Positions 61,052 through 64,000 of a stretch of DNA of 64,000 nt are shown piece by piece. This DNA is from Gammaproteobacteria bacterium (lineage in GTDB: Bacteria > Pseudomonadota > Gammaproteobacteria > Competibacterales > Competibacteraceae), in NCBI GenBank assembly GCA_024235035.1, contig JACKNE010000016.1, positions 27,403 through 91,402 of the forward strand, written 5' to 3'. Below the pieces are notes generated by a model. That model was not told the origin of the DNA. It was given only the letters and a program-made list of their open reading frames with translations, and did not search any database. Within the stretch, counting starts at the first letter, position 1. The number at the start of each line of letters is the position of its first letter. Position numbers and translations under genes: made by a program.

Positions 61052-61111
61052 AGGTCACGCCCCAATAACTGGCATGCGTAGCATGTCCATGTTGATTGGC
61101 TGGTTAGCTGC
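61052..61111 (-). repeat. attC-like site e (last in the array, degenerate R' core)
   Basis: Minus-strand reading:
- R'' GCAGCTAAC;
- L'' AATCAAC;
- loop ATGGACATGCTACGCATGCCA;
- L' GTTATTG;
- R' GTGACCT (GTG instead of GTT).
R'' is a 9/9 reverse complement of the R' of site d. Confidence 0.6.
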
Positions 61112-61118
61112 CAATAAA

Positions 61119-61391
61119 TCAGTAGTGGTAGCGACATGAAATCACTGTGATAGCCTGATTATCTACTGCATAAACAAAGCGGTTTGTGTCATCAATCCGG
61201 CGTGACCAGAATCCTGCTAAGTTCTCTTTCAACGGCTCGGGCTTACCAATGCCTTCGAATGGAGAACGCTTAACATCATTAATCAGTTTGTTGATACGTT
61301 TAAGCGTTTTCTTATCTTGGGTTTGCCAATACAAGTAGTCGTTCCAAGCCTCATCTGTCCAAGATAGTAATCGTTGGCTACTACTCATCAA
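61119..61391 (-). CDS. yoeB: YoeB/Txe family toxin
   Basis: About 89 aa, LLSWTDEAWNDYLYWQTQDKKTLKRINKLINDVKRSPFEGIGKPEPLK...WSRRID..NRFVY...ISCRYHY. Overlaps the antitoxin gene by 11 nt. Confidence 0.92.
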   Translation of the reverse strand: MMSSSQRLLSWTDEAWNDYLYWQTQDKKTLKRINKLINDVKRSPFEGIGKPEPLKENLAGFWSRRIDDTNRFVYAVDNQAITVISCRYHY

Positions 61392-61635
61392 GTAGCGCTC
61401 TTACCGTTGTTTGACCCGCTCGATACTGTGCTATTGAACGATTAAGATGCTCTGCATTTTCAGGAGAACGAAGTAAGTGTACCGTTTCCATCAGGCTATT
61501 GTAGTAATCCAATGACATCACAACAGCATCTTCAGAATCTCTACGAGTGATGATTATTGTGTCCGCATCATTAATAACAGCATCTAAAACTGCTTTGAGG
61601 CTATTTCTTGCTTCTGTAAAAGATACAATTCTCAT
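61381..61635 (-). CDS. yefM: Phd/YefM family antitoxin
   Basis: 84 aa, MRIVSFTEARNSLKAVLDAVINDADTIIITRRDSEDAVVMSLDYYNSLMETVHLL. Confidence 0.92.
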   Translation of the reverse strand: MRIVSFTEARNSLKAVLDAVINDADTIIITRRDSEDAVVMSLDYYNSLMETVHLLRSPENAEHLNRSIAQYRAGQTTVRALLDE

Positions 61636-61721
61636 AAAAATACCAGTATGTACTTTTGATCAAAGAATTATAGGCTTTGTAATCACAAGTGTACAGTAAG
61701 TTGAACATGTATGATTGTAGC

Positions 61722-61787
61722 AGCTAACGCGCCGTTGAGCGACGACGCGCGCAGCGCGGAGGTGTCCGCTTCAACAGCTGGTTATAC
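61722..61787 (-). repeat. attC-like site d
   Basis: Minus-strand reading: R'' GTATAAC starts 1 nt after the mrr-like stop. The L box is TTGA(A)GCG(G)AC / GTCGCTCAA with two extrahelical bases. R' is GTTAGCT. Confidence 0.75.
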
Positions 61788-61788
61788 G

Positions 61789-62658
61789 TCATATGGCTTT
61801 GAACCAATCCGAGTCAATAGCCACCGACTCGACCAATTCGGTTCGGACCCCAAGACTTAGTTCTTTTAGCTTTTGTGCGAGTTGATCACCATCGACCAGG
61901 TCGATTGGGGGTGCGCCGTCACGCGTTGCTTCCTTGACCGCAGCGGGCGTGAACGTGCCCGTAGTAATGAACAAACCCTTGTCCGCTCGACCAACCATGG
62001 CGCCGCGGAAATCCCGGATCTCTCCTGCCCCAACGGAGCCTTGATATTTCTTGCATTGGAAGATGACATGGAAGCTCATGAATCCATGAAGGCGCGCGAT
62101 GCCTTTTCCATCGATCCCGCCATCTCCTGTTCTTCCGGTGACCTCCACCTGGACAAAGCCGGATTCCCGCAAGAGTCGCTGGGCGAGACGTTCAAATTGC
62201 TCAGCCGATATCTCTTTGGTTAGGATGCGGTGTAGCTCTTCGACCCAGGTCGATTCCTGCGCCAATTCTTTCGCTTCCGGAATTTCGCCCATTCCATCTT
62301 CAAGCTGCTCCGTCTTGCGGTTCCGTTGGTACTCTTCCCGTACGCGGCCGACTACTTCCCTCGGATTCACTGTTGGCGTGTCGTGCGCCTGTTGCGTCAG
62401 GACCCAAACGCCCCTTTTCGAATTTTCGAGGTGCCCAAATTGCTTTAGATAGCTTCTGGCCCAAGCGAGACGATAGGCTACTTCCGTTAACGTCGACTTC
62501 TCGGGATTATGAATGATGTTAACCACGTCTTCTGGGAAACGTTCATTCGAAATCACCTTGTCGTAGATTTCATCGATGGACCCTGAGCCGCCGAGGTCTC
62601 TCAGTGCGGACAAAAGCGGATTCATCAATTCATCGAATGTCGGGATTCTGGGCTTCAT
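61789..62658 (-). CDS. Mrr-like restriction endonuclease
   Basis: 289 aa with an N-terminal Mrr_N winged-helix (FDELMNPLLSALRDLGGSGSIDEIYDKV). The C-terminal Mrr catalytic core follows (GDGGIDG...VIFQCKKY). Confidence 0.85.
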   Translation of the reverse strand: MKPRIPTFDELMNPLLSALRDLGGSGSIDEIYDKVISNERFPEDVVNIIHNPEKSTLTEVAYRLAWARSYLKQFGHLENSKRGVWVLTQQAHDTPTVNPREVVGRVREEYQRNRKTEQLEDGMGEIPEAKELAQESTWVEELHRILTKEISAEQFERLAQRLLRESGFVQVEVTGRTGDGGIDGKGIARLHGFMSFHVIFQCKKYQGSVGAGEIRDFRGAMVGRADKGLFITTGTFTPAAVKEATRDGAPPIDLVDGDQLAQKLKELSLGVRTELVESVAIDSDWFKAI

Positions 62659-62684
62659 CGATTGATGGCTCTGCTTTTCATGAC

Positions 62685-62760
62685 GTTATAACGCCACAAA
62701 TAACCGGGCGCAAAAAGCGCGCAGCGGTTGTTGCGATCCGTGTTAATTTGTCTGTTAGGT
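62685..62760 (-). repeat. attC-like site c
   Basis: Minus-strand reading: R'' ACCTAAC (a perfect RYYYAAC) lies 16 nt after the stop. The L box is TAAC(A)CGG / CCGGTTA with one extrahelical base. R' GTTATAA lies 26 nt before the mrr-like ATG. Confidence 0.75.
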
Positions 62761-62776
62761 GTCTTTAAGCAAAAAT

Positions 62777-63559
62777 TCACATAGTGTGCAAATAAAGCTT
62801 CTGTTTACTTGTTCTGCGAAGAAGCAGAGCAAGGCCAGAGCATAAAAGAATAAGCGGCGACGGCGCAGGTATAACTGAAATAACGGTTGTTGATAGCTCT
62901 CTCAACGCAAAGGTACTTTGAATATTATCAAAATTGATATTTTGATTGGTTTCGAATCTGATATTGGCCGCTGCTCCCACGTCAAATGGAAAAGACGAAT
63001 CAATAAACAAGTCGATCAATTGCGCGCCACCAGGATAGCTAATAACACCCATTCCAGTCTCGAAATCTAACTCTGGGAAATCGAGCGACAATACTTCGCT
63101 TTCACCTGTCAATTCAAACGAAGAAATAACCCCGCTATCAAGAGTTAAATTAACCACAAAAGACTCGATGAACTGTACATCATTAAAACTACGCGAGACA
63201 ACGGAGCCATCTGCTAAAGTTATGTCAATTTCCATATCCATTGTGCCGGTTACGGATGACGATAAATTAACTTTTCCGCTTTTTTTTTCTGGATCAATGC
63301 TCCCTTTTAATCTACCTTTACCTTTCTTTCTACTTTTTTTCTTTGTGTGCTTGTATTTTTCGACCTCAATCATGTCTCCATTCTTTTTTGTTATCTTAAG
63401 CCCCTCTAGTTCTATAGTTTCTTTGTCGCTTTCCGAGTCAAAATTTGCACCCAAGTCGAGCTCAATCGTATTTGCGTACACGGATGTAGAAATTAATAAA
63501 ATTAACACCGCCAGAAGCAATGCATTAATATGATTTTTTTCATTAAATTTAATTCTCAT
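62777..63559 (-). CDS. PEP-CTERM-anchored secreted protein of unknown function
   Basis: GGAG lies 8 nt before the ATG at 63559. 260 aa with a signal peptide (LLLAVLILLISTSVYA) and a Lys-rich tract (KYKHTKKKSRKKGKGRLKG). The C-terminal sorting signal is IPAPSPLILLCSGLALLLRRTSK. About 32% GC in a sampled 60-mer. Confidence 0.7.
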   Translation of the reverse strand: MRIKFNEKNHINALLLAVLILLISTSVYANTIELDLGANFDSESDKETIELEGLKITKKNGDMIEVEKYKHTKKKSRKKGKGRLKGSIDPEKKSGKVNLSSSVTGTMDMEIDITLADGSVVSRSFNDVQFIESFVVNLTLDSGVISSFELTGESEVLSLDFPELDFETGMGVISYPGGAQLIDLFIDSSFPFDVGAAANIRFETNQNINFDNIQSTFALRELSTTVISVIPAPSPLILLCSGLALLLRRTSKQKLYLHTM

Positions 63560-63589
63560 AAATAGCTCCATCCTTTCGATGGTAGGTGC

Positions 63590-63675
63590 ATCTAACGGGG
63601 TGGCGGATAACCTGCGAGCCCGGACAAAATGCAATTTTGGACGGGTGATGTCAGGTTGATCCGCGTGGTTATGCG
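63590..63675 (-). repeat. attC-like site b
   Basis: Minus-strand reading: R'' GCATAAC. The L box is GCGGAT(C)AACCTG / CAGGTTATCCGC with one extrahelical base. R' GTTAGAT (a perfect GTTRRRY) lies 30 nt before the PEP-CTERM gene ATG. Confidence 0.7.
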
Positions 63676-63752
63676 GCGCGAAGCGCCAAGCAACCATGCG
63701 GATTAGAATCCGCCACCCCGTAGTGCGGGCGCGAAGCGTCCACACTACGCCG
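63676..63752 (-). other. ORF-less, highly structured mini-cassette between two attC sites
   Basis: About 77 nt with no ORF and three GC-rich hairpins on the minus strand: GTAGTG...CACTAC, GCGGAT-TCTA-ATCCGC and GGCGC-TTC-GCGCC. Confidence 0.5.
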
Positions 63753-63820
63753 CCATAACCGGAGGCAAAAACTGCATAGGGAGGAACGACCAGCGCAGTT
63801 TTTGACGTCCGAGTTTATGG
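63753..63820 (-). repeat. attC-like site a
   Basis: Minus-strand reading: R'' CATAAAC lies 5 nt after the GNAT stop. The L box is GTCAAAAACTGC / GCAGTTTTTGC and R' is GTTATGG. Confidence 0.7.
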
Positions 63821-63825
63821 CTTTG

Positions 63826-64000
63826 TTATGTTTCATTTACCAGCCCCCACTCAAGTGCTTGAGATTGGTTTTCAAAAATAGCCAAGGCTGTACTCATACG
63901 CTTGAAACCAAGCTTTTTGTAAAAGGCTTCTTTTCCTGGGTATGAGTACAAAATTATCTTTTTGTGTCCCTCGGATAGCTCAACCAGTTTTGACACAATG
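63826..64000 (-). CDS. GNAT family N-acetyltransferase, C-terminal part (5' end outside window)
   Basis: The minus-strand frame reads ...IVSKLVELSEGHKKIILYSYPGKEAFYKKLGFKRMSTALAIFENQSQALEWGLVNET*. The FYKKLGFK motif is the typical GNAT C-terminal motif. Confidence 0.7.
   Translation of the reverse strand, partial: IVSKLVELSEGHKKIILYSYPGKEAFYKKLGFKRMSTALAIFENQSQALEWGLVNET

Follow-up and report, generated by a model that had tools for sequence, protein, structure and literature searches.

A cluster of integron cassettes, probably without an integrase of its own, on a chromosome of "Candidatus Competibacteraceae"

Genes and units at the locus

Competibacteraceae are glycogen-accumulating bacteria of wastewater that are known mainly from metagenome-assembled genomes. 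We analyzed a stretch of 64,000 nucleotides from one of them (contig JACKNE010000016.1, assembly GCA_024235035.1), which we call the window, and concentrated on a row of short genes and palindromes at its right-hand end. Six units follow each other there in a single orientation, and each of them ends in an attC, the recombination site of integron cassettes. We regard the region, with a probability of about 0.9, as a CALIN (cluster of attC sites that lacks an integron-integrase), that is, as an integron cassette cluster without its own integrase on a Competibacteraceae chromosome. In the direction of transcription, the genes and units are as follows.

63826-64000, minus strand: 3' part of a GNAT acetyltransferase gene (Pfam Acetyltransf_1/7/10)
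63596-63747, minus strand: unit of 152 nucleotides (nt) with 61.5% G+C and no open reading frame (ORF), made of nested palindromes and ending in attC s2
62777-63559, minus strand: ORF of 260 amino acids (aa) with an N-terminal signal-like segment and a C-terminal tail of the type "PAP + hydrophobic + RR"
61789-62658, minus strand: Mrr-type restriction endonuclease (Pfam Mrr_N and Mrr_cat, 2e-31 and 2.8e-17)
61667-61695, minus strand: promoter-like site TGTACA-17-TATAAT, 10 of 12 consensus positions
61381-61635, minus strand: yefM (Pfam PhdYeFM_antitox, 1.6e-23; also NCBIfam)
61119-61391, minus strand: yoeB (Pfam YoeB_toxin, 2.6e-42; also NCBIfam)
~60805-61057, minus strand: remnant unit of ~250 nt without a credible gene, ending in attC s6

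The window cuts through the GNAT gene. It was completed with contig JACKND010000004.1 of assembly GCA_024235055.1 (locus L001; retrieved with the exact Mrr protein), which is identical to the window and runs 8,658 bases past position 64000, so that the 64-kb window and 8.6 kb beyond it, 72.6 kb altogether, could be scanned for attC sites and integrase genes. The full GNAT protein has 143 aa and a TTG start at 64257 (L001 8402-8833), and the 5' boundary of its cassette, G|TTATGTTT, has its G at 64282; both lie beyond the window.

The 260-aa protein belongs to no Pfam, NCBIfam, or PADLOC family, and a look-up of the exact protein returned nothing. It had been labeled PEP-CTERM in the preliminary description of this DNA, a label that was taken from inspection of the C-terminal tail only and found no support in Pfam or NCBIfam; indeed, the PEP-CTERM domain models did not match the protein even at E values of up to 5. 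The protein is predicted to be secreted or anchored. The Mrr-type enzyme also matched the PADLOC models mREase_IV (type IV methyl-directed restriction; 1e-24) and PDC-S02 (3e-26) and is a candidate type IV anti-phage enzyme.

The genes yefM and yoeB form a type II toxin-antitoxin (TA) pair that shares one cassette (61119-61635). Its leader is 92 nt long (61636-61727) and contains the only TGTACA-17-TATAAT site on the minus strand in 60700-64000, in keeping with the earlier proposal that this cassette carries its own promoter-like sequence. TGTACA motifs lie around the promoter-like site, and we take them to resemble the operator of yefM-yoeB in Escherichia coli. TA cassettes bring their own promoter, and self-promoted TA cassettes are known to stabilize arrays. 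Upstream of the first cassette, no promoter-like (sigma-70-like) site was found. An ORF of 140 aa from the ORF list (60715-61137, minus strand) spans s5, the remnant, and s6 and extends into the region upstream of lysE; it matched no family and is probably not a gene.

The G+C contents are 41.9% for the GNAT unit, 61.5% for the ORF-less unit, 39.0% for the 260-aa-protein unit, 53.8% for the Mrr unit, and 40.6% for the TA unit, compared to 54.3% for the window and 55 to 61% for the flanking genes. Thus, neighboring units differ by up to 22 percentage points. Neither tblastn with the cassette proteins other than GNAT nor blastn with the TA leader and the remnant gave a match in the ~165 loci that were fetched.

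The palindromes are attC sites

A covariance model (R1) was built with four sites of the window as its only seeds and a structure set by hand. As a forward test, it was run against 80 loci (1.0 Mb) around integron-integrase genes, taken from species-representative genomes. R1 gave 53 matches, and 50 of these, in 21 loci, were upstream of intI and on the opposite strand. This cassette compartment makes up 16% of the search space, which gives a binomial P of ~4e-36. R1 scored highest on the attC of the arr-3 cassette within the class 1 array aac(6')-Ib-cr/arr-3/dfrA27/aadA16, and it also matched those of dfrA27 and aadA16; a betaproteobacterial integron (L059) had 13 matches in a regular array. 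In the window and L001, R1 found its own four seeds and nothing else; s2 was missed at default filters.

The reciprocal test used a second covariance model (R2), made from 35 intI-adjacent attC sites in 17 other genomes. The two models served as surrogates for the attC_4 model of IntegronFinder. R2 found six co-oriented minus-strand sites within 3.0 kb of the window (60799-63831), with E values of 1.6e-8 to 2.4e-3 in 85 kb. The outer boxes R'' and R', the inner boxes L'' and L', and the extrahelical bases (in parentheses) of these sites are given below.

63742-63831, minus strand: attC s1, 90 nt; R'' ACATAAC, overlapping the GNAT stop codon; L'' GCCAT(A)AAC(T)CGGA; L' TCCGGTTATGGC; R' GTAGTGT (63748-63742), non-GTT; R2 30.9 bits
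63590-63674, minus strand: attC s2, 85 nt; R'' GCATAAC; L'' GCGGAT(C)AACCTG(A)C; R' GTTAGAT, canonical; R2 25.1 bits, E = 2e-4 (7.5-kb search without filters)
62686-62760, minus strand: attC s3, 75 nt; R'' ACCTAAC; L'' ACAAAT(T)AAC(A)CGG; R' GTTATAA, canonical; R2 40.0 bits
61722-61787, minus strand: attC s4, 66 nt, classical type; R'' GTATAAC; spacer CAGCT; L'' GTTGA(A)GCG; L' CGCTCAAC; spacer GGCGC; R' GTTAGCT, canonical; R2 48.2 bits, E = 1.6e-8
61052-61109, minus strand: attC s5, 58 nt; R'' AGCTAAC; L'' CCAAT(C)AAC(A)TGG; R' GTGACCT, non-canonical; R2 34.6 bits
60799-60876, minus strand: attC s6, 78 nt, decayed, absent from the preliminary description; R'' GTCCAGC; R' G-TAGGT, non-canonical; R2 25.6 bits, E = 1.7e-4 without filters

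Elsewhere in the 72.6 kb, R2 had no match apart from one of 15.7 bits on the opposite strand of s4, and with the filters switched off the remaining matches reached at most ~9 bits. It also had no significant match in 67 kb of DNA from relatives. An attC family is missing from Rfam, and none of the Rfam models matched anything in the region.

In the preliminary description, every minus-strand ORF was followed by an imperfect palindrome with the layout of an attC, and five such sites of 60 to 86 nt were counted. The arrangement and the positions were confirmed, whereas the number of sites rises to six and their lengths range from 58 to 90 nt. The gaps after the ORFs are 0 to 16 nt: s1 overlaps the GNAT stop codon, and the distances are 16 nt after the 260-aa ORF, 1 nt after the Mrr gene, and 9 nt after yoeB. 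Boxes R and L, the unpaired spacer, the extrahelical bases, and the variable loop were all found again in the model alignments and in DNA folds, which had been suggested as a check; the stems were long and imperfect, and the ORF-side arm (R''/L'') carried one or two bulges. The z-scores of the folds were -1.7 to -5 for the sites and -8 for a 168-nt composite. Over the six sites, standard pairs filled 95.4% of the pair cells (a figure that leans upward, the alignment having been fitted to the model), compared to 23 to 39% with slid partners, and 7 of 15 pairs had compensatory changes. Taken together, the six sites are genuine attC sites, far beyond chance. Since the bulges are on the L'' arm, the recombinogenic bottom strand is the plus strand of the window, which agrees with the direction of the ORFs. 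The cassettes run toward lower coordinates, as originally proposed.

R'' ends in AAC in five of the six sites, and R' begins with GTT in three. A common register, xxxTAAC, 8 nt, bulge, AAC, bulge, xGGA ... CCGGTTA, 5 to 6 nt, GGC, GTxxxxx, is shared by s1, s3, and s5; s2 has the same register with slightly longer spacers. In Beta- and Gammaproteobacteria, this register is the predominant one in integrons that adjoin intI. The distance of 8 nt from AAC to the first bulge is that of the fetched attC of aadA16 (GTCTAAC + 8 nt + C). The spacers of s4 are 5 nt long, and s3 holds a terminator-like hairpin with a T run. For s1, the sequence GTTATGGCGGCG had been read as R'; it is the L' box plus spacer, and the true R' is GTAGTGT. 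Homology with s3 (..GGC GTTATAA) and s5 (..GGC GTGACCT) rules out the former assignment, and so do the attC of arr-3 (..ATGGCGGC GTTAACC) and both model alignments. The core GTGACCT of s5 had been taken as mutated and as marking the fixed end of the array. It is indeed non-canonical, but the array continues to s6, 180 nt further on. The non-GTT cores of s1, s5, and s6 may represent decay or a tolerated variant.

Cassette boundaries

A cassette that is opened at G|TT and joined into an array leaves complementary sequences at its two ends. With R' placed as corrected above, the first bases of each unit were set against its own R'' context in reverse complement.

GNAT unit: start GTTATGTTT, own R'' context AAACATAAC, 9/9
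260-aa-protein unit: start GTTAGATG, own R'' context CACCTAAC, 7/8, a moderate signal
Mrr unit: start GTTATAACGTCAT, own R'' context ATGACGTATAAC (s4), 12/13 with one indel
TA unit: start GTTAGCTGC, own R'' context GCAGCTAAC (s5), 9/9
Remnant unit: start GACCTCAT, own R'' context ATGAGGTC (s6), 8-nt block

Among all 720 permutations, the true assignment of starts to R'' contexts had the top score. Single-base departures from GTT/AAC match in neighboring units: GTAGTG goes with CACTAC and GTGACCTCAT goes with ATGAGGTC. The complementarity of starts and R'' contexts is what circular cassettes leave behind when they open at G|TT; a cassette start complements its own R'' because strands are exchanged at this position. 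Four complementary pairs had been listed before. The signature as such holds, and the Mrr pair is stronger than it had appeared, but the pair GTTATGGCGGCG/GCGCCGCATAAC has to be withdrawn since it uses L' of s1.

No integrase at the locus

The preliminary description placed the integrase just beyond the window and advised a search past position 64000 for cassettes, attI, and intI. This DNA encodes the rest of GNAT, an ORF of 76 aa, a DUF58 protein, CoaBC, a sigma-54 activator, and mycofactocin genes. It contains the rest of the GNAT cassette and no further attC, even with the R2 filters off, and no phage-integrase domain (PF00589) was found among the called genes of L001. A tblastn search of the 72.6 kb with IntI1, a query that is 100% identical to intI1 on >5,000 plasmids, had a best E value of 3.5 and revealed neither an intI gene nor an intI pseudogene; an insignificant match near the upstream end of the array was on the wrong strand. 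Thus, there is no intI up to 8.6 kb upstream or 60 kb downstream of the array, a statement that holds for the present locus only. Upstream of G|TTATGTTT we found one mini-palindrome of 28 nt (GTATAAC..GTTATAC; 6.6 bits), perhaps all that is left of another attC; for attI, there is no general model. The 76-aa ORF (L001 8081-8311), which has a signal-like N terminus, lies between DUF58 and the first cassette and is followed by the mini-palindrome.

By its DUF58 homologues, the organism is placed in "Candidatus Competibacteraceae." In relatives whose DUF58 proteins are 81 to 82% identical, DUF58 is followed directly by Bax1-I and PrpD. Homology to these relatives ends at the DUF58 stop codon (L001 7918) and restarts at 14819, 118 nt before Bax1-I. 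The intervening 6.9 kb (L001 7919-14818) comprise the 76-aa ORF, the array, and the genes for LysE, a 152-aa ORF, an M35 peptidase, and a cupin. Judged by this comparison, the array locus is a strain-specific island. Its part outside the array is the following.

57841-60798: LysE exporter, 152-aa ORF, M35 peptidase (opposite strand), and cupin

This remainder contains no attC (filters off) and no mobility gene. Because the conserved DUF58 gene intervenes, the array is not contiguous with any integrase further upstream.

Comparison with known arrays

CALINs are defined by at least two clustered co-oriented attC sites with no intI nearby (within 4 kb; 10 kb was also checked) (PMC4889954). They have been reported to contain about 5 to 6 attC sites on average (PMC9024848), and an intI pseudogene is undetectable in 95% of them (PMC4889954, PMC9024848). 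The present array has six co-oriented sites less than 4 kb apart, no intI or intI pseudogene, and cargo unrelated to resistance, and it differs from CALINs in nothing of kind. Particular to it are the decay of half of the R' cores, the structured ORF-less unit, and the position in a 6.9-kb island between conserved genes.

Site s1 closely resembles the arr-3 attC of class 1 integrons (for example, NZ_CP026588.1). The 5' arms (ACATAACAAAGCCATAAACTCGGACGTC in s1 versus GCATAACAAAGCCATCAAACCGGACGCC) and the 3' arms (CCGGTTATGGCGGCGT in s1 versus CCGTTTATGGCGGCGT) are nearly identical, whereas the lengths (114 nt in arr-3 versus 90 nt, owing to the loop), the R' boxes (GTTAACC versus GTAGTGT), and the cargo (arr-3 versus GNAT) differ. 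Environmental integrons of Beta- and Gammaproteobacteria (L059, L066, L062, L083, and L074) have the consensus GCCTAAC, 8 nt, (C)AAC(A)CGGAC ... CCGGTTA ... GTTAGGC. The register and both bulges of this family are shared by s1, s3, and s5, and by s2 with slightly different spacing. Those arrays adjoin intI, and the GTT core is kept in all 35 intI-adjacent sites behind R2, whereas three of the six sites here lack it. Sedentary chromosomal integrons such as the superintegron of Vibrio cholerae are likewise chromosomal and carry TA and restriction-type cassettes, but they are large (typically >10 to 20 cassettes, with tens to hundreds of near-identical repeats) and adjoin a vertically inherited intI; here, six mixed sites of two types are found, without intI and absent in relatives. 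TA pairs and small restriction systems have been reported as frequent cargo of cassettes (bioRxiv 10.1101/2024.07.02.601686).

Weighing the interpretation

The reciprocal R1 and R2 tests support an integron-type cassette array, as first described, but not a complete or sedentary chromosomal integron, because no intI was found; the assignment changes to a CALIN. An integron integrase would have inserted the cassettes singly. This enzyme folds the attC bottom strand into a hairpin with R box, unpaired spacer, L box, and flipped-out bases, and the strand exchange takes place at G|TT. With no integrase at the locus, movement would be possible only in trans. The sites s2, s3, and s4 have the canonical GTT, and the 260-aa-protein and Mrr cassettes could still excise; the damaged cores of s1, s5, and s6 would leave the GNAT unit, the TA unit, and the remnant fixed in place.

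Several observations weigh against this interpretation. The seeds of R2 were obtained via R1 matches, so R2 is biased toward the present attC family, and s2 and s6 reach just ~25 bits. The R' cores of s1, s5, and s6 are non-GTT, and the ORF-less unit follows the rule of complementary ends only poorly. Neither an attC nor an attI could be recognized at the upstream end (L001 8312-8377). Finally, the contig stems from a metagenome-assembled genome, and the left junction from DUF58 to GNAT was seen in one assembly.

If the array is half of a split integron, or if an IntI encoded on another contig built it by secondary-site insertion or was separated from it by rearrangement, the cassettes could still be moved by that enzyme. 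We consider this a tentative possibility. Relatives among the Competibacteraceae carry complete integrons ("Candidatus Contendobacter," L074, has five R1 matches, and L069 is a Competibacteraceae intI locus), which makes it plausible that an integrase acts, or once acted, in trans. Moreover, Cury et al. (2016, PMC4889954) found IntI to be encoded in the replicons of roughly half of all CALINs, and s2, s3, and s4 are intact. On the other hand, the decay of three cores points to relaxed selection on recombination, and neither an insertion sequence element nor a rearrangement scar was seen at the edges.

A complete chromosomal integron that ends distally in this array, with attI and intI just past 64000, is very improbable. 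The cassettes are indeed oriented as expected for an intI at higher coordinates, with genuine attC sites; yet the genes in the 8.6 kb past 64000 have no integrase domain, IntI1 had no tblastn match, no further attC and no promoter-like site precede the first cassette, and DUF58 is conserved with the same downstream neighbor in relatives. We give just as little credit to an assembly chimera, in which a foreign cassette array was joined to a Competibacteraceae contig. Integron repeats do disturb assemblies (PMC9024848), the source is a metagenome-assembled genome, and the cassettes have a foreign G+C content, but two independent Logan assemblies from two runs (L002 and L003) reproduce window positions 58001-63600 and connect the array to the genes for LysE, M35 peptidase, and cupin, and the contig is 739 kb long with host-like sequence on both flanks. 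Intergenic repeats of the repetitive extragenic palindrome or bacterial interspersed mosaic element type, or terminators resembling attC, can practically be dismissed: the palindromes are intergenic, follow stop codons, and are GC-rich in places, and s3 has its hairpin and T run, but such repeats occur as many near-identical dispersed copies, whereas the six sites here differ in sequence and length, keep the attC register, have no other copy in the 72.6 kb or in 67 kb of relatives, match intI-adjacent and class 1 attC sites, and come with cassette-specific boundary complementarity and with G+C steps of up to 22 points.

Read as a CALIN, the element is well supported and ordinary, and it leaves current understanding unchanged. 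It adds a verified cassette array for the Competibacteraceae. The attC family that it shares with class 1 resistance cassettes (arr-3) fits the idea that environmental Proteobacteria feed the clinical cassette pool. With intact and decayed cores side by side and a self-promoted TA unit near its end, it is a small example of an array becoming fixed chromosomal genes, and the compact Mrr-type candidate defense gene is in line with recent reports of cassettes storing anti-phage systems.

The ORF-less unit

The ORF-less unit consists of hairpin A, which starts from the R' position of s1, a perfect long-range stem of 14 bp, hairpin B, and the stem of s2. Its minimum free energy is about -51 to -56 kcal/mol (z about -8), and two alternative 5' halves are able to pair with one 3' half. 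No Rfam model matched the unit, and blastn found no similar DNA in the ~165 fetched loci. An alternative form of s2 with 138 nt (R'' GCACTAC and the perfect 14-bp stem) has no unpaired spacer and no bulges, and R2 prefers the 85-nt form. Duplication of an attC, or a composite attC, may account for the unit. It is unlikely that the unit is a functional structured cassette element and that the non-GTT cores are non-canonical recombining cores rather than products of decay. Such an element could take the form of a branched attC with a three-way junction, whose two alternative 5' halves let one 3' half recombine in either of two registers, or of a small structured element made of RNA or DNA.

The GNAT cassette in other arrays

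GNAT homologues were collected from metagenome contigs; of 201 relatives, the best 80 were kept (62 to 85% identity; L084-L163). R2 had 61 matches in these 80 loci, and all 61 were on the strand of the GNAT gene. In 12 loci, the attC begins 2 nt before the end of the ORF, the same offset as in the window, and several loci are multi-site arrays. The GNAT cassette of L129 has the start GTTATGTTTC and the R'' end GAAACATAAC, both as in the window, and a different attC body. Throughout the family, the R'' over the stop codon and the 5' boundary are the same, and the attC bodies differ and are 58 to 106 nt long. This suggests that attC interiors are exchanged or that they diverge much faster than the GNAT gene. 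These comparisons show independent mobility for the GNAT cassette only: the same gene is found elsewhere with other neighbors and another attC.

Other features of the contig

Two features lie apart from the array. The mycofactocin genes (L001 1-4702, ~4 to 8.6 kb past 64000) encode the MftA precursor, a short-chain dehydrogenase, MftB, and a glycosyltransferase, and they adjoin a sigma-54 activator with a MimR_N domain in this genome of the Competibacteraceae (Gammaproteobacteria). At the other end of the window, three tandem tRNA genes are located at 6077-6371, two of them with identical scores.

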